IMG/VR virus record: IMGVR_UViG_3300020442_002355
Span: 1-54,147 of that record
DNA length: 54,147 nucleotides
DNA from: a virus
Taxonomy: Duplodnaviria; Caudoviricetes
Direction: 5' to 3' (one strand)
Translations under genes and position numbers: made by a program
Part shown: positions 6,300 to 52,869 of the stretch, in pieces
Position numbering within the stretch: position 1 is the stretch's first letter
Layout: each line of letters starts with the position of its first letter
Notes under the pieces: model-generated
What the model saw: only the letters and a program-made list of their open reading frames with translations
Told to the model about the DNA's origin: nothing
The model's database searches: none

Positions 6300-6300
6300 A

Positions 6301-7149: not shown

Positions 7150-7180
7150 TTATTCACAAGTTCCCTATGTGTATATTTAT

Positions 7181-35313: not shown

Positions 35314-35356
35314 GCTTACACTACTGAGACACTTTAGAGGCTTCAGTTAGCATTAC

Positions 35357-35530
35357 TCACCACGTATCAGGTGTATGCAAGTCCTCGACATATGCCTCGC
35401 AGTATTCACTACCCTCCAAACCGAAGAGTTTATCCCAGTTGATATTATGCGGGTCAAAGTCATTCATTGCCTCAATCTCTAAGGTAATGCGATACTTACT
35501 CTTCTGTGCCTGGTGATAGATAGCGGGCAT
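35357..35530 (-). CDS. 57-aa hypothetical protein (not in ORF track)
   Basis: MPAIYHQAQKSKYRITLEIEAMNDFDPHNINWDKLFGLEGSEYCEAYVEDLHTPDTW; own promoter upstream. Confidence 0.7.
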   Translation of the reverse strand: MPAIYHQAQKSKYRITLEIEAMNDFDPHNINWDKLFGLEGSEYCEAYVEDLHTPDTW

Positions 35531-35559
35531 TTGTGAGAACCTCTGAGTGATACTTTGTT

Positions 35560-35588
35560 ATTGTACTATGGACTGAGAGATATAGCAA
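35560..35588 (-). promoter_or_regulatory. sigma70 promoter TTGCTA-17-TACAAT
   Basis: 17-nt spacing, 29 nt upstream of the ATG at 35530. Confidence 0.6.
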
Positions 35589-35626
35589 GCACCTCAAGTC
35601 CTATTTAGAAAGTGTCTGCCGGGTGC

Positions 35627-35655
35627 TTGACTTTTGGGGGAGTTCGTGTTAGACT
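35627..35655 (+). promoter_or_regulatory. Plus-strand sigma70 promoter TTGACT-17-TAGACT
   Basis: 17-nt spacing, TGn extension; points into the non-coding region. Confidence 0.6.
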
Positions 35656-35753
35656 GAAGGCCAGGATCACTATGCTGAGAAGGATTTAGAGAGTGTATTC
35701 AGAGGGTCTTCAGAGATACTTAGCAGCGTCTCTGGGGTGTACTTAAGGGCATA

Positions 35754-35850
35754 TTTTCCACAGTTTCTAACACTATTGTGGAAAACATTGTGGAAAAGAT
35801 AAAACGTTCAAATACATTTAAAATAACATTTTTAATATAAAAAAACCCTA
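35754..35850. other. Three TTTTCCACA (DnaA-box-like) sites plus AT-rich tract; candidate origin
   Basis: ttttccaca 35754-35762; tgtggaaaa 35777-35785 and 35789-35797; A/T tract 35798-35850. Confidence 0.5.
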
Positions 35851-35995
35851 ATCTTGTATATATCAGGGCAGAAAAGGTGAGTTTTTGGATATTACAGAGG
35901 TCTTACATGTATTGGTCCATCACACACAACCCGGACCTCAAATGCCTATACTTCACTGTTACATAAGCAATCAAATCATAGGACAGTTACTGTTA

Positions 35996-36145
35996 TCAGA
36001 ACTCAGTAGGATTGCCCTCGAAATCAACAGCAACAGCGCCAGCGTTAGTCATACTTTCGTCGGCAACAATCACGTCCAGGATAGAAAGAATGTCTTCTCC
36101 ATTGTTAGCAGTGGAGAGCATACCAATTGCCAGTTCTTTGTTCAT
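35996..36145 (-). CDS. 49-aa acidic hypothetical protein (not in ORF track)
   Basis: MNKELAIGMLSTANNGEDILSILDVIVADESMTNAGAVAVDFEGNPTEF. Confidence 0.55.
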   Translation of the reverse strand: MNKELAIGMLSTANNGEDILSILDVIVADESMTNAGAVAVDFEGNPTEF

Positions 36146-36258
36146 TAGAAAGTGTTAATAAGTGAATGGAGTTGAACGTTAGTGAAACGTCTAGTTAGTT
36201 GTTAATCTAGGTCTTACGTTACTTATAGGTCTCCCTATAACTTACTGCCTAGTAAGTG

Positions 36259-36453
36259 TTATTCTAAGAGATCAGGATAGTATTCTTTCACCTCTGTAAT
36301 CAGTTCATCTACGGTATAAGAATCATAACTATTATCTAATTGATCAGCAACTAATTGCATCAATGTTTTGAGGTCCATGTCATCAAGAATCCGATCAATT
36401 AGGTTTTGTTGAAGTTCATCACGATCGATGATGTTGTCTGTGGTAGTGTTCAT
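36259..36453 (-). CDS. Small acidic hypothetical protein
   Basis: ORF track; paralogue of the adjacent gene. Confidence 0.75.
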   Translation of the reverse strand: MNTTTDNIIDRDELQQNLIDRILDDMDLKTLMQLVADQLDNSYDSYTVDELITEVKEYYPDLLE

Positions 36454-36632
36454 GATTCAGGAATTAGATGTGGGGCATACTGTTTAACGTCTTCTACAAG
36501 TTCATCATCATCAAGGTCATTCAATTCTCTGTTCTGTGTTACAATGAAGAAGTCCCTTAAGTCTTCTTCTGTCATCTGATTTAGATCCCATTCGATGTAC
36601 TCTTCTTGGATTTGTTCTCTTGTTTTGTTCAT
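36450..36632 (-). CDS. Small acidic hypothetical protein
   Basis: ORF track; ATGA overlap with its paralogue. Confidence 0.75.
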   Translation of the reverse strand: MNKTREQIQEEYIEWDLNQMTEEDLRDFFIVTQNRELNDLDDDELVEDVKQYAPHLIPES

Positions 36633-36641
36633 TGTTTTGTA

Positions 36642-36989
36642 TCAGGCAAAAGTGTAACCATGAGTGAATGATTCGGTTTTGAATACTTTTTCATTACCAA
36701 TTTGACCGACAAACTTTCTTACAAACCATTGATAATTCTTTTGGAAAACTCCTTCTCCAGCAATGCAGAACTCATTACATAGTGCGTTCAATCGTGATTT
36801 GGTTGTTTTAGTTTGCCAACCACCATCATAGATTGTCATGTCAGTATCTGTCACAGTAGCAATCAGATTGCCGTGCAGATATACATTTGAATTGTTTGTA
36901 TCAGGATCAAATGTGACGCTTGTGTTATCCTTTGACCAGTTGCGATTGTTGTTAATTGCACGGATCATTTCAAATTCGATTTTTCTCAT
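36642..36989 (-). CDS. Conserved phage hypothetical protein
   Basis: MRKIE..M..AI, VYLHGN.IA, GGWQT.TTKSRLNAL; follows repeat 2. Confidence 0.8.
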   Translation of the reverse strand: MRKIEFEMIRAINNNRNWSKDNTSVTFDPDTNNSNVYLHGNLIATVTDTDMTIYDGGWQTKTTKSRLNALCNEFCIAGEGVFQKNYQWFVRKFVGQIGNEKVFKTESFTHGYTFA

Positions 36990-37055
36990 GATGTTTGTGT
37001 GTTGAGTGTGTGGTTACAATACTAGGACACTTTAGAGGCTTCAGTTAGTATCACC

Positions 37056-37262
37056 TCATATCTCGGCAATTAATAGTTTCAGGCATCTGTCTGCTTCAGT
37101 GAGAACATCATCATCTAATTCATCCCATTCGACTTCAGCATAGGCACTAAATGCCGTTTCATATGTACCATCTGAAAGAAGAGGAGCATAATACAAAACC
37201 GCAGAATGATCAGGGTCTAATGTATAAGTACAACCGTTGATTGATGAAACAAGAAAAACCAT
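37056..37262 (-). CDS. Hypothetical protein
   Basis: Exactly fills the interval between repeats 2 and 3. Confidence 0.75.
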   Translation of the reverse strand: MVFLVSSINGCTYTLDPDHSAVLYYAPLLSDGTYETAFSAYAEVEWDELDDDVLTEADRCLKLLIAEI

Positions 37263-37317
37263 AATGTGAGTTGATTGTGTGAGTTACACTACTAGGACAC
37301 TTTAGAGGCTTCAGTTA

Positions 37318-37470
37318 CTAAACCTCACGAATTGCATCGATAATAAACTCTTTTTCAGTAGAATGTATGTGATTGATGCAATCATCCATATCTACACATT
37401 CTTCGACCGTGATAAACTTGAATCGGTCGGGATTGTCAATACGAGAAAGAGTGACGTTGAAAGTTTTCAT
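37318..37470 (-). CDS. 50-aa hypothetical protein (not in ORF track)
   Basis: MKTFNVTLSRIDNPDRFKFITVEECVDMDDCINHIHSTEKEFIIDAIREV; fills the interval between repeats 3 and 4. Confidence 0.7.
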   Translation of the reverse strand: MKTFNVTLSRIDNPDRFKFITVEECVDMDDCINHIHSTEKEFIIDAIREV

Positions 37471-37532
37471 TTAGTGTGTGAATTGTGGGCGTTACACTAC
37501 TGGGACACTTTAGAGGCTTCAGTTACTAAACC

Positions 37533-37856
37533 TCAGGCATATGACATCTCAGTATCATAAACAACACGGATGTTTGTACCAATCACAGGATCAATCGGTC
37601 CCCACTTATAACATTTTTCGTCAGCAAAATATCGTGCTACCTTACTCATCAGACGATCATCAACTTCACCACTATCACCAAGAATTGTGGTCTCAACATA
37701 TGGATAACCATCAACCTCAATCATATCACGAATCCAACCATACATTTCAACCTTATTATCAAACAACTTACTAGTGCGTAAATCACCACCAGCAACCGCA
37801 AGATATGCTCCTGAAAACTCAGGATTCATTTTGGAGAATGTCATTGAAGAGTGCAT
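37533..37856 (-). CDS. Hypothetical protein
   Basis: Fills the interval between repeats 4 and 5. Confidence 0.75.
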   Translation of the reverse strand: MHSSMTFSKMNPEFSGAYLAVAGGDLRTSKLFDNKVEMYGWIRDMIEVDGYPYVETTILGDSGEVDDRLMSKVARYFADEKCYKWGPIDPVIGTNIRVVYDTEMSYA

Positions 37857-37903
37857 AATGTTTGAATGTTGTGTGATTACACTACTAGGACACTTTAGAG
37901 GCT

Positions 37904-38305: not shown

Positions 38306-38309
38306 ACTA

Positions 38310-38657
38310 TCAGCGGAGATAAAGGAATGAACCGTAGGCATCAACAACCTCAGGATGATCTACCAGAAAATCCATATAGAATCGGATACCTTTAGCAGGT
38401 GCTTTGTATGATGCAGACTTATAAACTGCACCGTTATTCTTATCAACGAACATGAAGCAACTGCGACCACGCAGCGGCACACCATTGCTCACAAGATAAG
38501 ACCAGACTTTGATATATTTCCGACCAACCTCATACTCAAGTTGAGTATAAGTGTTACGACCGGATTCAAGTGAATCAACCTTGAAACGGTTGTTCACAAC
38601 TTCGAGCAGACATTCAGTCAGATACTCTGCTTTGAGATTAGGAGCGCAAAAAGTCAT
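38310..38657 (-). CDS. Conserved phage hypothetical protein (GRKYIKV ... YK.AS.KAPAK family)
   Basis: ORF track; follows repeat 6. Confidence 0.8.
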   Translation of the reverse strand: MTFCAPNLKAEYLTECLLEVVNNRFKVDSLESGRNTYTQLEYEVGRKYIKVWSYLVSNGVPLRGRSCFMFVDKNNGAVYKSASYKAPAKGIRFYMDFLVDHPEVVDAYGSFLYLR

Positions 38658-38717
38658 TTTAGTGTGTTTGAATTGTGTGCTTACACTACTGGGACACTTT
38701 AGAGGCTTCAGTTACTA

Positions 38718-38882
38718 TCACATTGATTCGATGATAGATTGACGTGCCTGATATGCTTCAAATTGACTGTTGAATGTCGCAATCTTAGTCATATCATCTG
38801 CCCAATAGATGGCAAACTTATGTGAACCAAATACACCCTTCACTTTGATAGGGTTGTCGATACCAAGAGGATAAGATTTCAT
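38718..38882 (-). CDS. Small hypothetical protein
   Basis: Likely start MKSYPLGIDNP within ORF 38718..38936. Confidence 0.6.
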   Translation of the reverse strand: MKSYPLGIDNPIKVKGVFGSHKFAIYWADDMTKIATFNSQFEAYQARQSIIESM

Positions 38883-38925
38883 GGTGTAAGAAGAAAGTTC
38901 AGAAAATAATGTGTAAACCTTTGTA

Positions 38926-39105
38926 TCACATTCCATTCATAAACTCATGCAGTTCAGCAAGATACTGTTCTTCAGTTTCAAACTTTCGACCATAGATTTC
39001 ACAAGGGAAAGTTTTCTTTTGGAACATAGTTGATGCCACGCTGACATCTTGTCGATCATAACCCATAGAAATAAGGTTTTCGACGTAGGGATTAGTTTGA
39101 GTCAT
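38926..39105 (-). CDS. 59-aa hypothetical protein (not in ORF track)
   Basis: MTQTNPYVENLISMGYDRQDVSVASTMFQKKTFPCEIYGRKFETEEQYLAELHEFMNGM; follows repeat 7. Confidence 0.7.
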   Translation of the reverse strand: MTQTNPYVENLISMGYDRQDVSVASTMFQKKTFPCEIYGRKFETEEQYLAELHEFMNGM

Positions 39106-39153
39106 AATTGTGTTTTGATTGTGTGCTTACACTACTAGGACACTTTAGGGGCT

Positions 39154-39339
39154 TCAGTTAGACATACCGCCAATGGTCTCATCATAGATTTTCTCTACGA
39201 TTGCCCACTCAGAGTAGGTCAGTGCAGAAACTTGAGAGAGAATATAGTCAGTTGCCATATCCCAGTCAGCATTAGTTTCCTCGATGAATTGTGGGAAACC
39301 TGCAACAACAGAGGAAAAAGGAGTAAGAGAAGTGATCAT
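39154..39339 (-). CDS. Hypothetical protein
   Basis: Fills the interval between repeats 7 and 8; stop lies in the repeat. Confidence 0.75.
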   Translation of the reverse strand: MITSLTPFSSVVAGFPQFIEETNADWDMATDYILSQVSALTYSEWAIVEKIYDETIGGMSN

Positions 39340-39390
39340 AGTGTGTTTTGATTGTGTGCTTACACTACTGGGACACTTTAGAGGCTTCAG

Positions 39391-39597
39391 TTACTTACTC
39401 TTACGTTTTTTGAGTTTTGTGATAAAGTTCTCTGCACTCTGTTTGTTCCTACACACCTTCATCTTACAGTTATCATATACTACCATATATTTCTTGCCTG
39501 TGCCCATTGGAATTGCCGCAATCTCCCAGTCTTTACCAACAACCCATCCTAATCGTGGTTTAGGTTCTAATATGCTACTGTTTGTTGGATACTTCAT
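39391..39597 (-). CDS. Small basic hypothetical protein
   Basis: ATGA-coupled to the helicase; TAA stop lies in repeat 8. Confidence 0.75.
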   Translation of the reverse strand: MKYPTNSSILEPKPRLGWVVGKDWEIAAIPMGTGKKYMVVYDNCKMKVCRNKQSAENFITKLKKRKSK

Positions 39598-40778
39598 CGG
39601 CGCACAACAGAATCATACAACTCACCTTGCTCAAACACAATATCAACAACCTTCTGCAATGCTTTGGCGGTGCTGATACCAACCTTAGAATAGGAAGGTA
39701 CAACACAGAGACCATAAGTTTTCTTTGCAGCAGGTGCCAAACGCAGAACACGTCCGATTGTTTGTGTCAATTCAATCACGTCCATGTTACGCATAAAGAT
39801 AACACAATCAAGCATGGAAACATTGATACCCTCTGAAAGGATAGAGCGGTGGAGAACAACAAATTTCTTGTCTGATTGGCGTCCCCAAGCGTTCAGAACC
39901 TCGAAGAACTTCTCTCTAGATACTTTCACCCCATCGATGATTGCACCCGTCTTAGAGGTGATATAGAGGTACGAATAACCACGGTCAGCAAGTTGCTGTG
40001 CAAAATCTGTCTGAAAGATTGTAGTCAACTGCTTAGTAGTCTTGGCACAGACCAACACTTTCTTAGTGCCAACTTCGTCGATAGTTGTCAGCACATTGTT
40101 GGATTCAAGGTGTGGAGTGATAGACTGACGGTCAACCTTATCCATCTCAATCACCTTGACTTTAGGCGGTAAGATATAACCACCATCAACCAGTTCAGGT
40201 GCAGAAACCCGACAAATGATGTTGCCATAGACCTCAACATCGTTCATGCCTGGTTTATTGATAGTGACCGAAGTCTTGCGCGTTGCAGTGAAATAGTAGC
40301 AACGTTCTGCCTTGCGTGAGAAATACTCAGTAGCAGGGAAGAAGTTACGCTTGACGCTGTTATGTGCTTCGTCAAAGTAAATCGTATCGACATCAATACC
40401 AGACTCCATCACACGACCAAGAGAATTGTAGGTCGTGAAGATGAGAACATGCTCACGCACTGTCTGACACATATCAACAAACAATTTGATACGCTCAGAC
40501 TTAGTGGTGCTGAAATGTTTTGTCTCGCCACTATGAACGTGCAGCACATTTGCATTAGTGATGTGCTCAAGGTACTCAGAAGAGAGTTGCTCTGCCAACA
40601 GAATACGAGGAGCAACAACAACAATGGTGCGGGGAACTTTGATACTGAAACGACGCACTGCATCTTGAATAGCAATCAAAGTTTTTCCGCCGCCAGTAGG
40701 CACCAAAATCTGACCAATAGCATTAGAAAGCATTGCATCAAGTCCGCGCTGTTGATGAGGGCGAAGGGTGATTGTCAT
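39594..40778 (-). CDS. SF2 DEAH helicase (ResIII / restriction-enzyme-type)
   Basis: LRPHQ, PTGGGKT, DEAH, TAT, SEGINV, QTIGRVLR. Confidence 0.9.
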   Translation of the reverse strand: MTITLRPHQQRGLDAMLSNAIGQILVPTGGGKTLIAIQDAVRRFSIKVPRTIVVVAPRILLAEQLSSEYLEHITNANVLHVHSGETKHFSTTKSERIKLFVDMCQTVREHVLIFTTYNSLGRVMESGIDVDTIYFDEAHNSVKRNFFPATEYFSRKAERCYYFTATRKTSVTINKPGMNDVEVYGNIICRVSAPELVDGGYILPPKVKVIEMDKVDRQSITPHLESNNVLTTIDEVGTKKVLVCAKTTKQLTTIFQTDFAQQLADRGYSYLYITSKTGAIIDGVKVSREKFFEVLNAWGRQSDKKFVVLHRSILSEGINVSMLDCVIFMRNMDVIELTQTIGRVLRLAPAAKKTYGLCVVPSYSKVGISTAKALQKVVDIVFEQGELYDSVVRR

Positions 40779-40816
40779 AATGTAGTGTGTAGTAATACTA
40801 GGACAGTTTAGAGGCT

Positions 40817-41221
40817 TCAGTTAAAGAACCCTTCTAATCCAATAGGTTCTCCAAAAGAATAATCATAGGTAAGTGCATCATGACAGACAAAGTGAGGGTG
40901 ATCAACTGCAACACCTAGTTTCTTACACATCTCTGCATGATTATCCTCCATAAGTTCTACTGCATAGAGCATATTATCGTTGATATGTTGTAAAGAGTGA
41001 TATTTCAATAATTCTGTCTGCAGTGCTAGTAGGAAGTTCCCTGACCCTGCCGCCGGATCTAAAAATGTGCTCTTTGCATCTTGCAGCATCGATTGAGGCA
41101 GTTCAGACACCATCTCAGCACACAATTCCATAGGTGTGAATACCTCACCAGTCTGATCAATTCTTTCATCAGATCGTTCAATATCTGATCCTACTGTTGA
41201 ATTGTGTGTGTTCTTAGGCAT
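40817..41221 (-). CDS. Stand-alone SAM-binding half of an N6-adenine DNA methyltransferase
   Basis: GEVFTP (motif X), FLDPAAGSGNF (motif I), YAVEL, CHDAL; no NPPY. Confidence 0.85.
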   Translation of the reverse strand: MPKNTHNSTVGSDIERSDERIDQTGEVFTPMELCAEMVSELPQSMLQDAKSTFLDPAAGSGNFLLALQTELLKYHSLQHINDNMLYAVELMEDNHAEMCKKLGVAVDHPHFVCHDALTYDYSFGEPIGLEGFFN

Positions 41222-41780
41222 ACTGCTCCTTTACAATGTTGCGTAAATCATTCCAGAAAATGACATTGTTATCGACACGTCTTGCCATCTTCTCTCTATC
41301 GATGCAATGGACATTTGCCATGGCATGTTTAGGATGAACGCCCTTACATGATGTCACTATTATAACATTCTTTCCATTATATTGCAGTCCTTCGTTCATA
41401 GTTGCATCGGCAGCAATGTTAGAGATATTGTCTGCATTGGTCAATTGAGTGTTAGGATTTGCCTTGAATTTGACCTGAATTACATTAGGTTTGCCGTCAA
41501 TTGTAGAGAGTCCACGTCCATCAATACCGCGATCATAATCGAAATTTGGTTCATAGTTTGCAGTGTATGTGAGTGTATGATCGCCATTGAAGAACTTGAG
41601 GAAGTATTCAACGAACCACTCAAATCCATCTCCCATGAACTTCAATGGGTCATAGAAGTCTGGATCTTGCTTCTTACCAAGGGCAACCAACTTTTTCAGG
41701 AATGAATCTAACTTATTGTCAGAGATTAGAGAGTCAATCTCTTCACAATCAAAACCAAATGTGTGTTGCAGTTTCATCAC
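41214..41780 (-). CDS. Mrr-like PD-(D/E)xK restriction endonuclease
   Basis: GDGFEWFVEYFL ... DRGIDG ... VIQVKF, matching the Mrr-type FE / DxGID / QxK signature. Confidence 0.7.
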   Translation of the reverse strand: MMKLQHTFGFDCEEIDSLISDNKLDSFLKKLVALGKKQDPDFYDPLKFMGDGFEWFVEYFLKFFNGDHTLTYTANYEPNFDYDRGIDGRGLSTIDGKPNVIQVKFKANPNTQLTNADNISNIAADATMNEGLQYNGKNVIIVTSCKGVHPKHAMANVHCIDREKMARRVDNNVIFWNDLRNIVKEQYA

Positions 41781-42907: not shown

Positions 42908-42955
42908 TGGTTGTGTGCTTGTATTACTAGGACAGTTTAGAGGCTTCAGTTACTA

Positions 42956-44362: not shown

Positions 44363-44410
44363 GATGTTGTGTTGGTTGTGTGCTTACAATACTAGGACAC
44401 TTTAGAGGCT

Positions 44411-44881
44411 TCAGTTAGTTTCATCAATGGTTTGAACCTCTTCGATACCATTCTGAGAGTTGTATTCTGCTTTGATAGCAGTACCGCTAGCAAAACCAAC
44501 AATACTAGATGTTGAAACAATAGCAGCAAGGATTAGAGAGGCATTCTTACCACTCACACGGTTCTTTGCCAGTTTGTAAGAACCAAACCCGGCACCACCT
44601 AGCAGCACCCAAGGAAGCAACCACCAGGCAATCCCAATAGCACAAACAAGACCGATAAGTGCCCAACTTCCCTCAACATCAGAGGCACTGAATGAAGAAC
44701 CAGATGAAGAAGAGGAAGAAGAATTGTCATCGTGAATCTCAAAGATACGATTTACATCACTCTCGTCTACACCCTCACGTCTTGCAATTTGTTTCTTAGC
44801 AGCAAAAACATTTGCAGCATTTACCTCTACTTGGTATGGATGATCTCCAGATACCCAGACTTGTGCTTCAAAACGTGCCAT
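44411..44881 (-). CDS. Membrane protein (N-terminal domain, Ser linker, 2-3 TM helices)
   Basis: Hydrophobic segments WALIGLVCAIGIAWWLLPWVLLGG and LILAAIVSTSSIVGF; fills the interval between repeats 11 and 12. Confidence 0.75.
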   Translation of the reverse strand: MARFEAQVWVSGDHPYQVEVNAANVFAAKKQIARREGVDESDVNRIFEIHDDNSSSSSSSGSSFSASDVEGSWALIGLVCAIGIAWWLLPWVLLGGAGFGSYKLAKNRVSGKNASLILAAIVSTSSIVGFASGTAIKAEYNSQNGIEEVQTIDETN

Positions 44882-44933
44882 GATGTTGTGTTGGTTGCGT
44901 GCTTACAATACTAGGACAGTTTAGGGGCTTCAG

Positions 44934-45095
44934 TTACAGTATCTCACCTCGCATCTGTGCAAGTTTAGCAACACTATAGCACTCTAGGATAGTATATGCA
45001 ACCTCACCAGATACCATGTGCTCATCACAAAAATACTCCATTGTGTCCTCAATCAGTTCGATGAGTTGTTGATGCTTTGCTTCAGTGATAGTCAT
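44934..45095 (-). CDS. 53-aa hypothetical protein (not in ORF track)
   Basis: MTITEAKHQQLIELIEDTMEYFCDEHMVSGEVAYTILECYSVAKLAQMRGEIL; ATGA overlap, TAA stop in repeat 12. Confidence 0.7.
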   Translation of the reverse strand: MTITEAKHQQLIELIEDTMEYFCDEHMVSGEVAYTILECYSVAKLAQMRGEIL

Positions 45096-45967
45096 GCGTT
45101 TGTAGCGAAGTTTGCGAAAGAAAAGGACTCACGATTGACGAGTTTGAACATACCAAACTCATTGGTGCGGACATAACCCTCACCGATGCATTGACGGTTG
45201 CCTAGGAATGCCTTAGGACCGTTATTGCGACAGAGTTTAAGCATGTCCTCCTTGATAGATTTGATGAGGAACCAGTAACTAATCAGACGAGAGTTGTTGA
45301 ACTCCTCAGGGTCAATCTCACGTCCCTCACGAATACACTTGTTCAGTGCAATCTTAAGTTGTGCTGCCTCAGATACAGAGACAAAATCTACCAGTTGTGC
45401 CATCTGACGGGCAAAACCAATAATGTCACTGAAATCTTTGTCAACTGACCAGCAGTCAGGTTGAACAAACTTGACGAACTCATTGTCAGCGAATACCTCC
45501 ATATCTACCATGTCCATGATAGTGTAGGCATCCTTAAGTTCACCATCAGTCGCATAAAGAGTGTGAGGAGCGACAACAATGATTTGCTCAATAGGGTCAG
45601 GGAAGACATAAGTCACGGTATTAGGTGTGAAGGTATCTTCAAACATACCCCAACCTAGGAAGTCACCCTGAACAATGCCATCATATTGAGGCAGGAAAGT
45701 GAGACAATCGTGAAGGATTCGTGCAACCTCACCCTCATAGAGATCGTCAATCTCTTGATGAGAATGTGCAATCTTGATCTTTTTCTTGTTGAATACTGAT
45801 TTAGTGCCAACAAATTTGGTGCCAGTAGCAGGGTCAGTGCCCCACACAATAGCAGGTTTGCCATCAATCTTGACTGACATATCACTGTCAGACATAAACC
45901 AATCAAGGACAGATAAGTCACCCGTAAGGATGCTGTCCTCTGGATGTTCAAGGTGAGTGTTCTTCAT
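45092..45967 (-). CDS. Conserved phage protein with ligase-like nucleotidyltransferase motifs
   Basis: HLEHPED, SVKIDG (KxDG), VQGDF, GEGYV, FKLVNR. Confidence 0.7.
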   Translation of the reverse strand: MKNTHLEHPEDSILTGDLSVLDWFMSDSDMSVKIDGKPAIVWGTDPATGTKFVGTKSVFNKKKIKIAHSHQEIDDLYEGEVARILHDCLTFLPQYDGIVQGDFLGWGMFEDTFTPNTVTYVFPDPIEQIIVVAPHTLYATDGELKDAYTIMDMVDMEVFADNEFVKFVQPDCWSVDKDFSDIIGFARQMAQLVDFVSVSEAAQLKIALNKCIREGREIDPEEFNNSRLISYWFLIKSIKEDMLKLCRNNGPKAFLGNRQCIGEGYVRTNEFGMFKLVNRESFSFANFATNA

Positions 45968-45990
45968 ACTACTAGGACAGTTTAGGGGCT

Positions 45991-46179
45991 TCAGTTCTTG
46001 ATAAGCTCAAGAGTTTCAACAATACTAGTCATACAAGAACGTGAATAACCAGTAGCATAAGGATAACTTTTCTCAATTCCATCAGAACTACTATCCACAC
46101 CATGGCAGACAGCAATACTTTCTTTGAGGTTCTGAATCATAAGTTCCAGAACGTATTCGTCAATTTGATAGGTTTTCAT
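45991..46179 (-). CDS. Hypothetical protein
   Basis: Fills the interval between repeats 13 and 14. Confidence 0.75.
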   Translation of the reverse strand: MKTYQIDEYVLELMIQNLKESIAVCHGVDSSSDGIEKSYPYATGYSRSCMTSIVETLELIKN

Positions 46180-46228
46180 AGTTTAGTTGAGTGCTTACAC
46201 TACTAGGACACTTTAGGGGCTTCAGTTA

Positions 46229-46849: not shown

Positions 46850-46869
46850 CGGTCGTGTTTGTTATTCAT

Positions 46870-46908
46870 ATTATATATTTATCCCCTGCCCCCGTCAAGG
46901 GGCAGGGG
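46870..46908 (-). promoter_or_regulatory. Composite promoter: TTGACG-17-TATAAT + ATAAATA + 10-bp hairpin
   Basis: cccctgcccc-cgtcaa-ggggcagggg; the loop is exactly the -35 hexamer. Confidence 0.8.
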
Positions 46909-46916
46909 ACACTACG

Positions 46917-47144
46917 TCAATCGTCCTCTTCTTCAGTATCTTCAAGACCCCGAATCTTCTTCAGGGATTGATACGGACCTTTCCAAACTAGGTCTTCTTC
47001 ATAGAAGTAATTGACCCGTTCTTTGCGTGCTTGTTGCAACATATCCATTTGCAACTGTTGGTCCTTAGTAAAGACGAAATTCTGCTCCCTCCAAATCTTT
47101 TTCAGTTCGTTAATGTGGGACAGGACGTTTACAGTTTGGGTCAT
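46917..47144 (-). CDS. Hypothetical protein
   Basis: ORF track, co-oriented and gap-filling. Confidence 0.7.
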   Translation of the reverse strand: MTQTVNVLSHINELKKIWREQNFVFTKDQQLQMDMLQQARKERVNYFYEEDLVWKGPYQSLKKIRGLEDTEEEDD

Positions 47145-47147
47145 GAT

Positions 47148-47273
47148 TCAGACAGTGTAGGTTTCTTGGGCGAATTCGTCACACTTGACGTTGTTTTCAG
47201 GGTTATCTTCGTCGATAATGTCAAAGATTTCTCCTTGCATATCTTGAATCTCAGACCAAAGTTCGTCGTGCAT
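47148..47273 (-). CDS. 41-aa acidic protein (not in ORF track)
   Basis: MHDELWSEIQDMQGEIFDIIDEDNPENNVKCDEFAQETYTV; follows repeat 15. Confidence 0.6.
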   Translation of the reverse strand: MHDELWSEIQDMQGEIFDIIDEDNPENNVKCDEFAQETYTV

Positions 47274-47322
47274 AATTTTGATTGGTGCTTACACTAATGG
47301 GACACTTTAGAGGCTTCAGTTG

Positions 47323-47469
47323 TTATTTGGCAAGGATTTGGATGTTTGTTGCTCCTTGGTCCTTTACAATTCCCTCCCAGAATACAGCATCCTCAATTTT
47401 GTAGAACGTTGCAGTCTGCATTGCGTTGCCTTTTTTCTTCGGTTTGAGATACTTGACTTGATACTTCAT
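47323..47469 (-). CDS. 48-aa hypothetical protein (not in ORF track)
   Basis: MKYQVKYLKPKKKGNAMQTATFYKIEDAVFWEGIVKDQGATNIQILAK; stop abuts repeat 15. Confidence 0.65.
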   Translation of the reverse strand: MKYQVKYLKPKKKGNAMQTATFYKIEDAVFWEGIVKDQGATNIQILAK

Positions 47470-47629
47470 TCCAGTGTCTTAATACTCCAGATACAATAAA
47501 AAGGTTAGTGACCATGTAACTAACAAATATAAGGGTGCGAATGAGAGCAACCCAATCATCATAAGTTTCTGTCTTTGTGTCACTGAAACTCCCTAACGAA
47601 TATTTCCATATCGTCCAAATTCGTCGCAT
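47393..47629 (-). CDS. Small membrane protein
   Basis: W.IWKYSLGSFSD.KT...D.WVALIRT.IF...TN.FIVSGV.RHWN; C-terminus overlaps the next gene. Confidence 0.65.
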   Translation of the reverse strand: MRRIWTIWKYSLGSFSDTKTETYDDWVALIRTLIFVSYMVTNLFIVSGVLRHWNEVSSQVSQTEEKRQRNADCNVLQN

Positions 47630-47843
47630 TCTTATATCTCCTACTCTTCACATATACAAGTTCATCGTAATTATAACTGTTGACTACAATTAGGCAATGA
47701 TGTTTCTTGTGCATAGGCACTAGGTTGTCTGCTTTTGGTTTCACACTTATCTCAATAGTGAGATGATCCTCATCAAGATAATACACCCAACCCTCAACAT
47801 TTCTCCACTTGACGTAGTCATCAATTTTAGGTCGATAAGTCAT
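47580..47843 (-). CDS. Hypothetical protein
   Basis: ORF track; coupled small-gene chain. Confidence 0.7.
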   Translation of the reverse strand: MTYRPKIDDYVKWRNVEGWVYYLDEDHLTIEISVKPKADNLVPMHKKHHCLIVVNSYNYDELVYVKSRRYKNATNLDDMEIFVREFQ

Positions 47844-48148
47844 AGAAAAGCACGCTCTAATGGATTCAGATTGAGAGGCATAGCAGTGTAAGTTCTGGTG
47901 TCAGATAACTGAACTTCCTTACCTACTTTCTTGTGGTTGACTGGAGAATAATACTTTCGTTTTTTTGAATCATAGAACCCCCAGATGGTTCTAACGGGAT
48001 CAGAAGTGTAAGAAAAAGTAGAATGGTTCCGCAACCATATAGCAGTAACATTGCGTTTGAACGAAGTGTACTCATAAGAATAACCTTCAGGTGCTTTGTG
48101 TGTAAAATCAGGCGGACAGAGGTCGATCACTGACGGACAAGGATTCAT
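47840..48148 (-). CDS. Conserved cyanophage hypothetical protein
   Basis: H..PEGYSYE...TIWGF...TYTAMP.NLNPLE.AF. Confidence 0.75.
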   Translation of the reverse strand: MNPCPSVIDLCPPDFTHKAPEGYSYEYTSFKRNVTAIWLRNHSTFSYTSDPVRTIWGFYDSKKRKYYSPVNHKKVGKEVQLSDTRTYTAMPLNLNPLERAFL

Positions 48149-48335
48149 AGTCTGGATACATTGTAGTCACAATATACGTCGCAAGTTGTTGATTTGGTGC
48201 CACTACATCCACTGCCACATCTAACCACTGTGGAGCATCTTCAGGGGCATCTTGCATTGGCAGTTCAATACTGACCCGCCAAATGTTACCGTTCTTGAGA
48301 TGTTTGTCCCAAGATACTATCATATCAGGTTGCAT
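48108..48335 (-). CDS. Hypothetical protein
   Basis: ORF track; coupled chain. Confidence 0.7.
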   Translation of the reverse strand: MQPDMIVSWDKHLKNGNIWRVSIELPMQDAPEDAPQWLDVAVDVVAPNQQLATYIVTTMYPDYESLSVSDRPLSA

Positions 48336-48573
48336 GGTGTGCCTTTAAGTCAGGGTTTGCTTGAGATTTAGTGAGGTCACGACGAGACTGGTTCTTAATA
48401 ATAATGAACGCATCTTTGTTGTATTTGCGTGTGCCGATGGGAGATTGCCACTTTTTGTTGTACTCTTCCCCCACATCAATACCTGATACGGAAGTACCAC
48501 CAATCTCTACAGTGATTTCATCACCATCTTCCCACTTAAGTTTTTCGATGATAGCATTGATTTCATCAATCAT
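48325..48573 (-). CDS. Hypothetical protein
   Basis: ORF track; coupled chain. Confidence 0.7.
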   Translation of the reverse strand: MIDEINAIIEKLKWEDGDEITVEIGGTSVSGIDVGEEYNKKWQSPIGTRKYNKDAFIIIKNQSRRDLTKSQANPDLKAHHAT

Positions 48574-48809
48574 GTTGTAAACTGCTCCACAATTTCAGAC
48601 TCAACATCTTCTGCAAGGGCATACGTTGGTGCCTTCAAAATGTTTTCACGAAGACGATTGTAATAATCATCGTTCAATCCATCATCTTCCCTAGCAATCA
48701 AATCAAAACACTCTTCATCACTCTTGGCAACAACATTCCAGATGCCACCATATTCAGAGCGAGGGAATGGAATGAAATGATCAACAACGTAAAGGAATTT
48801 CTGAGTCAT
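48570..48809 (-). CDS. Conserved cyanophage hypothetical protein
   Basis: LY.VD...PFP.SEYGG.W.V.A. Confidence 0.75.
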   Translation of the reverse strand: MTQKFLYVVDHFIPFPRSEYGGIWNVVAKSDEECFDLIAREDDGLNDDYYNRLRENILKAPTYALAEDVESEIVEQFTT

Positions 48810-48838
48810 TGTCTCCTATGAATTACAGTTTGATTATA

Positions 48839-48958
48839 TCAGGAACAGAAAAATTCTGCAAGGTAGTAGTCAACTGTCACCTCAAGTTCTGCTGCTTCTT
48901 TTTCTACTTGATCCCAGAATTCTTGGGCACAAGCATCAAGTGGGTCTTTTTCAATCAT
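48839..48958 (-). CDS. 39-aa acidic protein (not in ORF track)
   Basis: MIEKDPLDACAQEFWDQVEKEAAELEVTVDYYLAEFFCS; follows repeat 16. Confidence 0.65.
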   Translation of the reverse strand: MIEKDPLDACAQEFWDQVEKEAAELEVTVDYYLAEFFCS

Positions 48959-48996
48959 AATCAGGTTGCTTACACTCCTAGGACAGTTTAGAGGCT

Positions 48997-49245
48997 TCAG
49001 TGAATATCAATGTGCAGGAAGGGCACTAAGTAATGAGAATGCCCGTGTCCTTTGTGATGATAATGCTTCTTAGGTCCGTGCCATAAACCGTGATGCCTTC
49101 CACTGTGCTTATGGCAGTGATGAATTGCTTTCTTAGGATGAATGTGGCAATGACTATGTTTGTGATGTGAATGATGGTGGTTACTATGTGCCATAGCAGG
49201 AGCACCAACCAATCCAAATAACATCAATGCAGGAAAGAGTTTCAT
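48997..49245 (-). CDS. Secreted His-rich peptide
   Basis: Signal-like MKLFPALMLFGLVGAPAMA followed by 63 aa with 25 His; stop lies in repeat 16. Confidence 0.7.
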   Translation of the reverse strand: MKLFPALMLFGLVGAPAMAHSNHHHSHHKHSHCHIHPKKAIHHCHKHSGRHHGLWHGPKKHYHHKGHGHSHYLVPFLHIDIH

Positions 49246-49264
49246 TAATTTAAGAATTTCTATT

Positions 49265-49301
49265 AGTATATACAAAAAAAGGGATGCTAGTCAAGCACCC
49301 C
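49265..49301 (-). terminator. Terminator overlapping a sigma70 promoter (TTGACT-18-TATACT)
   Basis: Minus strand GGGGTGCT-TGACT-AGCATCCC-T7; -35 lies at the loop. Confidence 0.65.
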
Positions 49302-49313
49302 TGTGTCAGTATT

Positions 49314-49469
49314 TCAATTGTCTTCACTTTTCAGTTTTCTGACCAGATGCTCTGCCCATTCTTCCATCTTATCTGGATGAATAGCACGAATACCTGAATC
49401 TTTCACTGCATTCTCAATAGAAGTCATCTCCTTATTACAAAGTTTTTTAGATTTGGAAGGAAGAGTCAT
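49314..49469 (-). CDS. 51-aa hypothetical protein (not in ORF track)
   Basis: MTLPSKSKKLCNKEMTSIENAVKDSGIRAIHPDKMEEWAEHLVRKLKSEDN. Confidence 0.6.
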   Translation of the reverse strand: MTLPSKSKKLCNKEMTSIENAVKDSGIRAIHPDKMEEWAEHLVRKLKSEDN

Positions 49470-49537
49470 ATGCAGATTTGAAATACTATAGTATTATATC
49501 AGTATTTACAAACAAACTTCCGTATCTTAATTATCAC

Positions 49538-49714
49538 TTAAGATTCTTGTTTCATTTGCTTACGAACTTTCTTTAACTCTTTAAGTTCACTCTTAATCAT
49601 CTGATATGCGTCTTCCGATGATAGTTTCTTTGCCATTTCCATAGCAGAGATAACTTCTACCCTTGTACCAAAGTGTTGCAATGCTCTTTCAAATGAATCT
49701 AAGTAGCTATACAT
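49538..49714 (-). CDS. Conserved small helical hypothetical protein
   Basis: Likely start MYSYLDSFERALQHFGTRVE within ORF 49538..49762. Confidence 0.7.
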   Translation of the reverse strand: MYSYLDSFERALQHFGTRVEVISAMEMAKKLSSEDAYQMIKSELKELKKVRKQMKQES

Positions 49715-49715
49715 A

Positions 49716-50156
49716 TCAGTTTCGGTTTCGTTTGTAGGGTCCAAGCGGCAACCTCCCAGCAATCCAATCGTCTCCTGGACATTCTACACTACGTTTGTTA
49801 GATTGTCCATTATTCCACCAGGTTGTTCCCTTTTGATTGTTATGAACTCCTGGAAAAGGTTTCCCTTTATATAGTTTGCTTAGTTTCTGTTTAACCTCTT
49901 CTGTGTGTGTCTTCCCCAAAAAGTTGTGAGGATTATTCTTAAGATATTCTTTTGCTCTCTTTGACATTAACTTGCGCGTTTCTGCTGACGCTTCTTTATC
50001 GGCATAATATTCGCGCAGAGTATTAGAAATAGCGTCTCTCATTTTTGGAGACATCCAATCAGCAGTATCAAAAATATATTCTATATTCTCTTCTTCAGGT
50101 AAGAATAAGGGCGCGTCTATTCCGAACGCCCTGTTAAGGGTTGTGTAATCTTTCAT
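49716..50156 (-). CDS. NUMOD3-containing homing-endonuclease-like protein lacking an evident nuclease domain
   Basis: SAETRKLMS and GKTHTEEVKQKLS (NUMOD3), KGTTWWNNG...PG..W..GR; no GIY-YIG or HNH motif. Confidence 0.7.
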   Translation of the reverse strand: MKDYTTLNRAFGIDAPLFLPEEENIEYIFDTADWMSPKMRDAISNTLREYYADKEASAETRKLMSKRAKEYLKNNPHNFLGKTHTEEVKQKLSKLYKGKPFPGVHNNQKGTTWWNNGQSNKRSVECPGDDWIAGRLPLGPYKRNRN

Positions 50157-50157
50157 A

Positions 50158-50240
50158 GTAGTCTTGGCGTATGACTATACTTATTTATACAAATTATAAC
50201 ATAAAAGTGGGACTTACGCAACTAAATCCGCCAAGACTAC
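50158..50240 (-). promoter_or_regulatory. 12-bp inverted repeat enclosing TTGCGT-17-TATAAT and TATAAATA promoters
   Basis: gtagtcttggcg 50158-50169 / cgccaagactac 50229-50240; late promoter 50182-50189; -10 at 50193-50198, -35 at 50216-50221. Confidence 0.8.
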
Positions 50241-50257
50241 CTGTTGCCGCCCACTAA

Positions 50258-50503
50258 TTACTTCTTCTCTTCGTTCATCTCATCGTCCAGAGTATCTAGA
50301 AGGTCTTTCTTCTTGTTTCTGGAGTTCTCAATCGCGTCTCTGACCTTCTCTAGGGTTCTCCTAGATACGTTAGTCTCAATCTCTTTTGTCTGCTGTTTGT
50401 TGGTCTTTTCTTTCTCCAACTTCGCTTCCTGTGCCTTACGATTTGCCAACATATCTTTAGCACGTTGTTCTAAATCTTCAGATAGTTTAGAGAAGGATTT
50501 CAT
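50258..50503 (-). CDS. Charged small protein with CTS-like start
   Basis: MKSFSKLSE; late promoter ATAAATA at 50524-50530. Confidence 0.65.
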   Translation of the reverse strand: MKSFSKLSEDLEQRAKDMLANRKAQEAKLEKEKTNKQQTKEIETNVSRRTLEKVRDAIENSRNKKKDLLDTLDDEMNEEKK

Positions 50504-50522
50504 AAGAGGCAGGATTCTCTAC

Positions 50523-50729
50523 TTATTTATCTTTAGACTCCTTATTTGTTATATTATACACTACTGGTTGAATTTTATCAATCTTTGCCTGTAATCTATT
50601 CTCTAATTCATATAATGCATTAGTCGTTTCTATGTTTTCCATTTCTAATTCATCAACACGACTTTCTAATTCTGAAATATAACGGTACACGGAGACATTA
50701 ACGAATCTCCTTATAAGTTTTCCTAACAT
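50523..50729 (-). CDS. Coiled-coil hypothetical protein
   Basis: ORF track. Confidence 0.65.
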   Translation of the reverse strand: MLGKLIRRFVNVSVYRYISELESRVDELEMENIETTNALYELENRLQAKIDKIQPVVYNITNKESKDK

Positions 50730-50731
50730 TA

Positions 50732-50893
50732 TTAAATTTTTGGTAATTTACAGTCTCTAGGTGATGCCTCCTTAATTTCATGCAATAGTTCCATCTTTAC
50801 AGAACGCGGAAGGTCTTTTACCTTCTCCAAATTAAGAATCAATCTTTGTGCATCAGAGCAAGATATTATCGTTGATAATAGTATTTCTATCAT
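50732..50893 (-). CDS. 53-aa hypothetical protein (not in ORF track)
   Basis: MIEILLSTIISCSDAQRLILNLEKVKDLPRSVKMELLHEIKEASPRDCKLPKI. Confidence 0.6.
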   Translation of the reverse strand: MIEILLSTIISCSDAQRLILNLEKVKDLPRSVKMELLHEIKEASPRDCKLPKI

Positions 50894-50913
50894 AATGCAC
50901 TCCTGCAGTTACA

Positions 50914-51117
50914 CTATTTAATCACAGACCAGTGTTTATCTTCATGTTCATTAATCCAAAAAAAGTAACGTCCATTGATAGATGCTAGAAACACTTTTCC
51001 ATCTTCTCTCTTCTCAACACGACAAGAATGAAGACTATGCATTTCATTAGCAAAGCGATTCTTTGCTTTGGATGTCTTGGGTTGTACGCAAAGAAACTCT
51101 GATTTCATAGTAGTCAT
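50914..51117 (-). CDS. Conserved cyanophage hypothetical protein
   Basis: V.PK.SKAKNRFAN.M..LHSC.VE....K.FL.SI..RY.FW. Confidence 0.75.
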   Translation of the reverse strand: MTTMKSEFLCVQPKTSKAKNRFANEMHSLHSCRVEKREDGKVFLASINGRYFFWINEHEDKHWSVIK

Positions 51118-51146
51118 AATTTGTCTTGAACCCCAACAAAGGTATT

Positions 51147-51563
51147 CTACAGGGATTTTAGATACTTGTCAAGTAATACACTTTCCATTGCTTCTGCTTC
51201 AATCTCCCATGGTTGATCCGTATAGTCCATCAGAGAGCAGTCTGTGCCCTTCCAGCAACGTTTACTACGGGCAAAGGATAAATCCCCCCTAACGTGTTGT
51301 AATAGGTGCCACAGTTCGTGTAGAAGGGTAACTGTGTAGGTATCAGCATCTAGGTTGGATTGCATCTCAATCTCAAAATGTCTAGGACGATATTGAGAAC
51401 CAACAGGACCAATCCATGCCAGAGCACAATCACGTCTCATACCACGATGGTTTATATCCACAGTGATTTTGTGTCTTGGTAGATACTCACCAATGAACCA
51501 GTTGACAATACTTTGAGCACGGCGTATACTGTAACCGTACCCATAGGTTTCAAGATACAACAT
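51147..51563 (-). CDS. Zincin-like metallopeptidase
   Basis: TLLHELWHLLQH (HExxH) with downstream Y...PWEIEA; likely start MLYLETYG. Confidence 0.75.
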   Translation of the reverse strand: MLYLETYGYGYSIRRAQSIVNWFIGEYLPRHKITVDINHRGMRRDCALAWIGPVGSQYRPRHFEIEMQSNLDADTYTVTLLHELWHLLQHVRGDLSFARSKRCWKGTDCSLMDYTDQPWEIEAEAMESVLLDKYLKSL

Positions 51564-51651
51564 AACGAATAATAAGTTCAGATACACGAACCCCCCAATT
51601 CATAAGAATGAAGAAGGAGGAGACAAAGATGAGTTTTTCTAAACCAGTCAT
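51550..51651 (-). CDS. 33-aa hydrophobic peptide (not in ORF track)
   Basis: MTGLEKLIFVSSFFILMNWGVRVSELIIRYVVS; 11 nt after repeat 17. Confidence 0.5.
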   Translation of the reverse strand: MTGLEKLIFVSSFFILMNWGVRVSELIIRYVVS

Positions 51652-51693
51652 CCTAGTAGTCTATTCACTACTAGGACACTTTAGAGGCTTCAG

Positions 51694-52869
51694 TTAGGTC
51701 AATTCTGCGTCGAAAGCAAAATAAGCATCTGCATTATTGGTTGTGACTATTCCACCATTACCCACAGCCCCATTTGTTCCAGTACCAGTATCGATAGCAG
51801 CACTATTGTTATTCTTTCTAGTTATAGCCATAACATCAAACGCATCAAGAAGACCTGCACTATAAATTCCATAGTATCCAGTGCCAGTTTCATAATCAAG
51901 ATTAGGTGGTATGCGCATAGTTACTGGAAAATGAACAGAAAAGGCAAATAAGGTAGTTGCGTAATAGTGACCAGTCCCTAAATCTTTTAAATTACCTTCA
52001 GCATGTTTGTAATAATATCTCTGACACAATGCTAACTCTTCAGCATAAGAACGATGCTCAAATTCAGTGGCATTTTTACCGACTTCTAGTTGGGCATGAG
52101 CAAATTCTAAAGTTGCACCAACCACATCCATTTGGTCACCAGCACAAGTAGTCAAGTTTGCATAACCTGACGTTGATGCCCAAGCACCTTTTGTTCCACC
52201 AGTAAAATTGGAACCCATTGTCCACATCAGAGTAAATCTTAATCCAGTGCTGTTTCCATATAGATTCCAGGAACCATTTGAATCACCAGGAACAACAATA
52301 ACTTTTTTCTCCCAAGTATCTGCTGTTTTTATAGTGTAGTCTGATGGAAAAACTCTTGTACCATCATGATTTTGGAAACTTGCTGGAAACTTTCCAGTTT
52401 TATTTGACTTTACCCAAAAACTAAATGTAAAAGGTTTTGCTTCACTAGTACCAAATCTAAATCTTCCAAAATCATTTGCTTCTATATGGTATAGAAACTG
52501 TGCAAAGTTGGAAGAAGTAGTACTACTCCTTGCAGTTGTTGTTTCAACTTTTAGGCTATGTGCCCAATATGGTCCATTATTCCAAGCAGTATTCTGAGAA
52601 ACTGTCACTTGAGCATTAGTAGAAGCCTCATACTTCCAACGGTCTACTCCATAAGCACCACTGGCAGCAACAGCAAAACTTGTGCCTCTCTCGGCAATCC
52701 TCATATCACCATTGATAATCAAATTCTTCCTACCAGCACTTACAAGGTCTCTGGCATCTTGAACAGTTTCTGCTGCTGCAAGTTCAGAACCTTTCAGACC
52801 AAAACGTCTTCCAAGTTCAGTAAGTTTCTCTCTAATATTAAAAGAACCTTTGTTGACTCTTACTGCCAT
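51694..52869 (-). CDS. Tail-fibre-associated / carbohydrate-binding virion protein
   Basis: RKNLIINGDM.I..RG, FSFWVKSNKTG, QLEVG..AT.FEHRSY.EELALCQRYY, F..DAEL; TAA stop lies in repeat 17. Confidence 0.75.
   Translation of the reverse strand: MAVRVNKGSFNIREKLTELGRRFGLKGSELAAAETVQDARDLVSAGRKNLIINGDMRIAERGTSFAVAASGAYGVDRWKYEASTNAQVTVSQNTAWNNGPYWAHSLKVETTTARSSTTSSNFAQFLYHIEANDFGRFRFGTSEAKPFTFSFWVKSNKTGKFPASFQNHDGTRVFPSDYTIKTADTWEKKVIVVPGDSNGSWNLYGNSTGLRFTLMWTMGSNFTGGTKGAWASTSGYANLTTCAGDQMDVVGATLEFAHAQLEVGKNATEFEHRSYAEELALCQRYYYKHAEGNLKDLGTGHYYATTLFAFSVHFPVTMRIPPNLDYETGTGYYGIYSAGLLDAFDVMAITRKNNNSAAIDTGTGTNGAVGNGGIVTTNNADAYFAFDAELT

Follow-up and report, generated by a model that had tools for sequence, protein, structure and literature searches.

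Elements termed PeSLs (promoter early stem-loops) are known from the T4-type phages RB49/phi1, T4/PST and KVP40/nt-1 (PMC2839356; PMC4122927). In the first of these papers, cassettes of a PeSL plus an open reading frame (ORF) were likened to integrons by the authors themselves, and recombination between dispersed direct repeats was proposed (PMC2839356). For the cyanophage S-PM2 no comparable PeSL density was found (PMC4503421), and Sullivan et al. (2010) tied mobile gene cassettes to tRNAs and endonucleases and not to a repeated junction element. Here we analyzed an element, named R, which is repeated at the gene junctions of a 54,147 nucleotide (nt) stretch of DNA from a virus of the Caudoviricetes (IMG/VR record IMGVR_UViG_3300020442_002355). 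This stretch, here referred to as the window, is the entire record and has a CheckV completeness of 25%.

Based on our analysis R is not an integron site and is best read as an element like the PeSLs minus the stem-loop. We think it rather probable that R is a promoter-like header of gene units which homologous recombination also uses as a substrate. The main idea, a promoter element doubling as recombination substrate, has precedent in other T4-type phages. Both elements are short, repeated, intergenic and co-oriented, and both are located in a hyperplastic region of a T4-like myovirus among small, mostly unknown genes. Insertions, deletions and replacements between relatives end at both elements without a dedicated recombinase, and both vary in sequence by phage group. 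In contrast to the PeSLs, R has no stem-loop or terminator, did not score as a near-consensus sigma-70 -35/-10 pair when read as CTGAAG plus TAGTRT, consists of a constant and a genome-specific half, abuts or overlaps stop and start codons and is found in cyanophages. We found no description of the two-part build, the genome-specific box or the built-in stop and start codons in the literature searched.

Three further systems are comparable. Integron arrays and the R array share co-oriented cassettes, a recurring site and gain, loss and reordering of units. However, R is accompanied by no integrase in the records searched and is not a structured, sequence-variable site of the attC type. Furthermore, integron cassettes share one common promoter, whereas each R unit has its own promoter-like signal. 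The stoperators of Cluster A mycobacteriophages are repressor-binding sites of temperate phages of about 13 bp. They resemble R as numerous short, asymmetric, co-oriented sites near stop codons and in short intergenic spaces with genome-specific variants, but R is about 33 nt long and belongs to a lytic T4-like phage. Finally, Doron et al. (2016, ISME J) are said to have described a conserved non-host-like element upstream of the early genes of T4-like cyanophages, reportedly defined in Syn9 and abundant among these phages and in metagenomes. Both are conserved elements; Syn9 is without R. R may be a lineage-restricted counterpart of that element or something different.

The initial annotation had reported 17 co-oriented, near-identical 34-nt repeats at gene junctions, and the scans agree. 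Its 34-mer was matched 14 times at up to 3 mismatches, always on the minus strand (none expected from 100 shuffles). The 20-nt core CTGAAGCCYCTAAASTGTCC, from whose first C the positions of R are numbered here, was matched 17 times in the window, 16 times exactly and once with one mismatch (0.01 expected). All core matches lie on the minus strand between 35327 and 51693 (17 reverse, none forward and none for the control). The copies thus cover 16.4 kb (window 35.3-51.7 kb) with a spacing of 208-2693 nt, which is in line with the units of 0.17-2.7 kb given before, and every ORF of the array region is on the minus strand and co-oriented with R. In all 17 copies the upstream ORF ended between 4 nt inside the core and 11 nt before it and the next start codon was located 7-35 nt past the core. 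The earlier observation of a stop within 8 nt and an ATG within 24 nt of the 34-mer likewise held. Repeat plus short leader generally make up the space between genes as had been stated, with the exception of the copy with core 45975-45994, where the ATG of a 291-amino acid (aa) gene lies inside the 34-mer and no leader is present. The copies are:

35316..35349, minus strand: R copy 1 (core 35327-35346, one mismatch), heads the 82-aa DUF7249 gene 35065-35313
37014..37047, minus strand: R copy 2 (core start 37025), heads a unit whose first gene is Kyano_Gp96, 36642-36989
37284..37317, minus strand: R copy 3 (core start 37295), heads a 68-aa ORF, 37056-37262
37492..37525, minus strand: R copy 4 (core start 37503), heads a 50-aa ORF, 37318-37470, which is located elsewhere in relatives L026 and L030
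37877..37910, minus strand: R copy 5 (core start 37888), heads a 107-aa ORF, 37533-37856
38681..38714, minus strand: R copy 6 (core start 38692), heads the DUF7717 gene 38310-38657 and a 145-aa ORF
39127..39160, minus strand: R copy 7 (core start 39138), heads the ORFs 38926-39105 and 38718-38936
39360..39393, minus strand: R copy 8 (core start 39371), heads the one-gene unit 39154-39339 (61 aa)
40790..40823, minus strand: R copy 9 (core start 40801), heads a helicase, 39594-40778, and a 68-aa ORF; right-hand end of a 4.07-kb R-to-R insertion/deletion (indel)
42919..42952, minus strand: R copy 10 (core start 42930), heads the methyltransferase unit 40817-42907
44384..44417, minus strand: R copy 11 (core start 44395), heads a ResIII/DEAD helicase, 42956-44362
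44903..44936, minus strand: R copy 12 (core start 44914), heads a 156-aa ORF, 44411-44881; left-hand end of the 4.07-kb indel
45964..45997, minus strand: R copy 13 (core start 45975), DUF6267 gene 45092-45967 with its ATG inside R (position 28)
46195..46228, minus strand: R copy 14 (core start 46206), heads a 62-aa ORF, 45991-46179
47289..47322, minus strand: R copy 15 (core start 47300), heads the unit 46229-47273
48970..49003, minus strand: R copy 16 (core start 48981), heads 7 small, mostly overlapping ORFs, 47323-48958
51663..51696, minus strand: R copy 17 (core start 51674), the first to be transcribed, heads the unit 48997-51651

Scanning IMG/VR with the exact core identified 38 related stretches. 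Together with the window they contained 188-191 copies at up to 4 mismatches, which were reduced to 143 non-redundant copies from 24 genome groups; in L024 no fewer than 3 degenerate copies escaped this threshold, and the class of junctions without R is therefore somewhat inflated. According to the gene-order strings of the 38 relatives the R-bounded units vary in presence and order. In six relatives (L013, L025, L027, L028, L034 and L035) the gene before the R copy at 44914 was joined directly to the helicase following the R copy at 40801. This join (W24-R-W30) lacks window positions 40826-44899, a segment of 4.07 kb with the 156-aa ORF, the second helicase and the methyltransferase unit. The two alignments at the junction share about 40 nt, which coincide exactly with R, and the homology switches inside R. 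In L013 the upstream flank of the junction matches one window copy of R and the downstream flank the other, with one intact R left between them.

Smaller events had the same outline. The one-gene unit 39154-39339 was absent from L013, L025, L027 and L028, and L013 carried an additional unit of 1.15 kb at the R copy at 46206. In L010 the 156-aa unit was found between other neighbours than in the window. Furthermore, the DUF6267 unit followed the helicase unit in seven relatives instead of preceding it.

Pairwise indels were merged by flanks and content into 55 events, 53 of which were scored against a null obtained by sliding each event along its own contig. R was present at none, one or both ends of 19, 22 and 12 indels, compared to 25.2, 22.5 and 5.3 expected, respectively. 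The excess was 2.3-fold for R at both ends (P=0.004) and was also found for R at any end (P=0.044). In total, R marks 184 of 688 gene junctions. Adjacency to the neighbour found in the window was kept at 56 of 245 junctions with R, compared to 196 of 390 others.

Judged by its sequence, R represents the form that a two-part element takes in one lineage, with a shared 3' half and a genome-specific 5' box of 10 nt. The 3' half (TAAAGYGTCC-YWD-TAGTRTRA) was detected in at least 119 IMG/VR stretches. Among the matches listed, 235 sites carried 59 distinct 10-nt boxes at the place where the window has CTGAAGCCYC, including TTGGATCCTC, TAGTAACCTC, CTGAGCCACT, TACTCACCTC, GTGGGCCCTG and GGGGGACGTG. 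In phage S-SM2 the 3' half of R occurs nine times within 42.7-57.1 kb behind another box, GGGGGTCGCC. In the 45 contigs with at least 3 sites (187 sites in total), two boxes from the same contig differed at 0.34 of the 10 nt on average, compared to 4.59 for boxes from different contigs (0 of 1000 label permutations). At the junction upstream of DUF6267, 12 boxes were found in 18 contigs, each identical or nearly identical to the box that prevails in the contig concerned; therefore, the box follows the genome and not the gene.

Within the window lineage, paralogous copies of one genome group differed by 4.49 nt, compared to 5.62 nt for copies from different junctions of different groups (0 of 2000 permutations). 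Orthologous copies differed by 3.88 nt, and the within-genome uniformity was weaker than that of the boxes. For boxes that are uniform within a genome and differ between lineages, either the copies must exchange sequence repeatedly or a reader that co-evolves with them must select for uniformity. It is not plausible that 13-17 sites changed by independent mutation. Several of the lineage boxes form perfect or near-perfect palindromes: GGATCC, GGGCCC, GAGGCCTC, GAAGCTTC and GGGG-AG-CCCC (L041-L149). One lineage carries the box GAGGCTTC, the reverse complement of GAAGCCTC in the window. The palindromic boxes hint at a symmetric reader; the boxes TAGTAACCTC and TACTCACCTC are not palindromic.

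Across the 143 copies positions -2 to +31 of R were almost invariant, whereas the coding flanks were 65-85% identical to the window. The consensus reads AA CTGAAGCC(T/C)C TAAA(G/C)TGTC(C/T) (C/T)AGTAGT(G/A)T(A/G)A. Positions 24-29 correspond to TAGTRT with T24 in 142, A25 in 130 and T29 in 128 copies, which as a sequence pattern is that of a putative -10 element. The A at position 34 was kept in 115 copies, and the leader up to about +44 is poor in G and rich in CA.

Each of the three frames is closed by stop codons within R (TAA at -3, TGA at 2, TAA at 11, TAG at 21 and 24, TAA at 29). The upstream ORF is terminated by a stop of R itself in 35 of the 143 copies, and in the window R's own TAA or TGA is the upstream stop codon of 9 of the 17 copies. 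Downstream genes are joined in two forms. In the first, ...TAGTAGTGTAA is followed by the leader and an ATG 22-35 nt past the core. In the second, ...TAGTAGT-ATG-A, the ATG is at position 28, 7 nt past the core. An ATG at positions 28-30 was present in 41 of 137 copies, and 38 of these ATGs opened an ORF of 40 codons or more, which far exceeds the one in three expected for an incidental ATG. The two forms occur at the same gene: the 59-aa gene 38926-39105 has a leader of 32 nt in the window and starts at position 28 in L013, L027 and L028. The homology extends from R into the coding sequence (flanks of R in L001-L038 and L041-L149): where ORFs start at position 28, unrelated proteins share an N-terminus such as MKNT or MKNN, and many unrelated upstream ORFs end in ...GAGGT(T/A)TAG TAA. 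From their sequence the first and last codons of the unit genes seem to derive from R.

Neither folding of five R copies as RNA (z 0.82, -0.52, 1.57, 1.13 and 0.20) nor folding of R as DNA on either strand (z -0.66 to 0.89) indicated structure beyond shuffled sequences. In some copies an upstream GAGGTTT can pair with AAGCCTC over 7 bp, but this is not general. None of the eight terminator-like sites in the window scan (10.9 expected by chance) was located at R, and R contains no Shine-Dalgarno-like pairing.

Several features point to a promoter. The putative promoter R heads co-oriented units, TAGTRT is kept, as is a purine located 5 nt behind it, and the copies have a density of about one per kb. 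The early promoters of T4 have a similar density of about one per kb. In the relative L024 (oriented coordinates 5000-8400) a degenerate R variant, CTGAAGCTTCCAAAATGTAT, was found at three junctions. At an equivalent junction of the same genome a hairpin terminator is followed by TGCTATAAT and then by a leader beginning with GTAAGCA as it does after R, so that two kinds of junction signal stand side by side. This arrangement fits a predicted transcript start near A34.

The build of R, where it occurs, the R-to-R junctions and the likeness of the copies in one genome were observed directly, and from these we infer promoter activity and early timing of R as well as its recombination mechanism. 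R would be a cis-acting expression signal, most likely a promoter, heading units of one to ten small early-type genes. With about 33 near-identical nt in 13-17 direct copies over about 16 kb, the phage's own homologous recombination could cross over between copies. General recombination of the T4 type is an established basis for such a step. A crossover between two copies of R would delete, insert, replace or move whole units and at the same time keep the copies alike. The genes would be left intact, because R closes the three upstream frames and can supply a start codon.

Several results weigh against a promoter-like header that recombines. On the side of recombination, 19 of the 53 indels had no R at either end, the NUMOD3 indel 49702-50539 among them. 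The diversity of the next gene behind R was not significantly higher (0.51 for 8 families compared to 0.39 for 40; p=0.09), and jumps of identity across R were no larger (5.27 in 19 pairs compared to 4.48 in 43 pairs; p=0.54). Some association of R with indels is to be expected anyway, because indels are tolerated only at gene junctions. Additionally, the indel events overlap in part and are not fully independent, and all relatives were found through the motif itself. The uniform boxes could also arise by selection via a co-evolving factor. One alternative is a purely regulatory R, a promoter or operator array with a box read by a fast-evolving lineage factor, where indels merely survive at gene boundaries and uniformity results from selection. 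In favour of it, 19 indels had no R and 22 had R at one end only, two of four association tests were not significant, and the box is constant per genome and variable among lineages as for a co-evolving pair of site and protein. However, indels with R at both ends were more frequent than expected (12 compared to 5.3, P=0.004), and the junctions keep exactly one intact R with the homology switch inside. A concerted box change at 13-17 sites through independent mutations would also be far less economical than conversion between copies. We regard a purely regulatory role as unlikely. The proposal of the initial annotation that R may be a recombination site is supported by the precise R-to-R loss, gain and reordering of units in related contigs, and R bounds part of the indels, with 12 having it at both ends and 19 at neither.

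On the promoter side, a sigma-70 scan (at least 9 of 12) did not flag R as CTGAAG plus TAGTRT. The -35-like CTGAAG scores 3 of 6 by eye and lies in the lineage-variable box. The single match of the scan at an R copy (47333-47304) combined an upstream TTGCCA with TAAAGT inside the core; TAAAGT (positions 11-16) was rejected as -10 element, as other lineages have C at position 16. Moreover, a working ATG at position 28 is upstream of the predicted start near A34. Genes of this form, DUF6267 included, therefore need read-through, or the transcript starts elsewhere; read-through from an upstream copy is possible, since no terminators are present between the units. The placement of R and the conserved TAGTRT agree with the early promoter with a -10-like box proposed before. 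The weak sigma-70 match and the lack of terminators would also suit an R acting in RNA, as a processing or re-initiation site between the cistrons of a long polycistronic transcript, where translation would stop whatever the frame and resume at position 28 or behind the CA-rich leader. For this speak as well the stops in three frames, R's own stop used in 35 of 143 copies and the 38 of 41 in-frame ATGs, by which position 28 appears to be translated. Nevertheless, we consider it improbable: no RNA structure (z -0.5 to 1.6), Shine-Dalgarno-like pairing or Rfam match was found, the start codon is either 7 nt or 22-35 nt past the core, which is against a fixed translational signal, and the conserved T24, A25 and T29 are what a -10 element needs. 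Least of all do we expect R to serve as attachment site in a site-specific cassette system resembling an integron, with a recombinase encoded elsewhere in the genome. Co-oriented cassettes split by one repeated site, and a window of only about 25% of the genome, would leave room for it. However, neither the window nor any of four related records (55-92 kb) was matched in searches with PF00589 and PF00239, the five records being 25-43% complete, while in control searches the two families were found in 14 and 12 of 14 genomes. This is in agreement with the earlier remark that no recombinase is visible in the window; neither a tyrosine nor a serine recombinase was detected there. R also lacks the imperfect palindrome of attC, and its copies are near-identical, unlike attC sites with their variable sequence. 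Each unit, moreover, has its own promoter-like signal. An integron is not needed either, since homologous recombination between dispersed direct repeats suffices, as proposed for the PeSLs. The integron-like platform of the initial annotation was thus not supported: no recombinase was found in the five records and no attC-like structure in R, and 19 of the 53 indels were without the repeat.

Returning to the recombining promoter-like header, its two halves could be read separately, and we offer this as a speculative and rather doubtful extension. R would then be a two-key early promoter with a constant half read by the host RNA polymerase or a conserved phage factor and a 10-nt box serving as a "barcode" for a fast-evolving lineage factor, perhaps carried in the virion. 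If so, early transcription or shut-off would be specific to the phage's own genome in mixed infections, and conversion between copies would keep the barcode uniform. The built-in stop and start codons would make R a universal adaptor that plugs any ORF into the early programme.

T4-like cyanophages are among the most abundant marine viruses, and most of their variable genes lie in regions of this kind. A junction element of about 33 nt would explain how whole units, such as helicases and a DNA methyltransferase module, are swapped without breaking genes. R may further be used as a simple marker when metagenomes are searched for units of this kind. Its division into a shared and a specific half points either to copies that strongly exchange sequence or to a putative DNA-binding factor particular to each lineage.

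Among 50,697 phage records the two-part element was matched only in S-SM2, SynMITS9220M01 and AG-345-O18, the last being a virus contig from a single-cell amplified genome. In a relative of 91.6 kb all 13 copies of R lie within 41.3-56.4 kb. In six cultured cyanomyoviruses (Syn9, P-HM2, P-HM1, S-PM2, P-SSM2 and P-SSM4) the 3' half was not found above the reversed-pattern control. Syn9 had no match to the 3' half at up to 3 mismatches and two isolated weak ones at up to 6. A de novo word search upstream of 208 Syn9 ORFs gave no enriched R-like word, only late-promoter-like words and host-like TGCTATAAT promoters. The bacterial and archaeal genomes contained three single matches to the 3' half, none of them in a record that is cyanobacterial by its title.

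The nucleotide sequence of the window matched only Synechococcus myoviruses over short stretches, with identities of about 80% to Bellamy and about 83% to S-SM2. In both phages a homologous region of small genes is located directly upstream of the baseplate genes gp25, gp6 and gp7; we take the R region to be the variable region of a T4-like cyanophage at this place. By protein identity (60.7% for DUF6267) Bellamy is the closest relative in culture, and its junction element is a different one. Here, AGTG(T/G)C(A/C)CAC right after the stop codon is followed by a GC-rich hairpin and then by TGTATATTA. This composite element is closer to the build of a PeSL than R is. At the homologous junctions (Bellamy 59751-78632, L165) this hairpin is followed by (C/T)GTATATTA and a leader.

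The unit genes include members of the Kyano_Gp96 family, DUF6267, DUF7249 and DUF7717, while the majority is without a Pfam family. Two paralogous ResIII/DEAD helicases (39594-40778 and 42956-44362) are carried by separate units. Between them, the methyltransferase unit 40817-42907 contains a 376-aa Eco57I-type methyltransferase, a 187-aa ORF and a 134-aa N-terminal fragment of N6_Mtase, and looks split. Genes 83-88 of Bellamy are the same helicase and methyltransferase genes, but in a different order relative to DUF6267. In the DUF6267 protein the Pfam match begins at residue 3. DUF6267 was rejected as an R-specific partner, since it is present in 469 phage records, and the majority of these phages do not carry R. 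One further ORF of the array region is located inside the indel mentioned above that has no R at either end:

49716..50156, minus strand: 146-aa ORF with a NUMOD3 motif (homing-endonuclease-like), inside the indel 49702-50539

This ORF and the neighbouring 81-aa ORF are missing from L013 and L028.

At 35600-36260 (minus strand) about 650 nt without a convincing ORF lie between a 49-aa and a 57-aa ORF. This gap contains a direct repeat, TTTTCCACAAT, in two copies, an inverted partner, TGTGGAAAA, and a GC-rich stretch with a T-run behind it. A small RNA, an origin or a regulatory function could account for the gap; the tRNA and Rfam scans of the window gave no match each. Outside the array, at 29832-29939 on the plus strand, the window contains ten overlapping copies of a 9-nt period (CCTGAGGAA / CTGGAAGAA).

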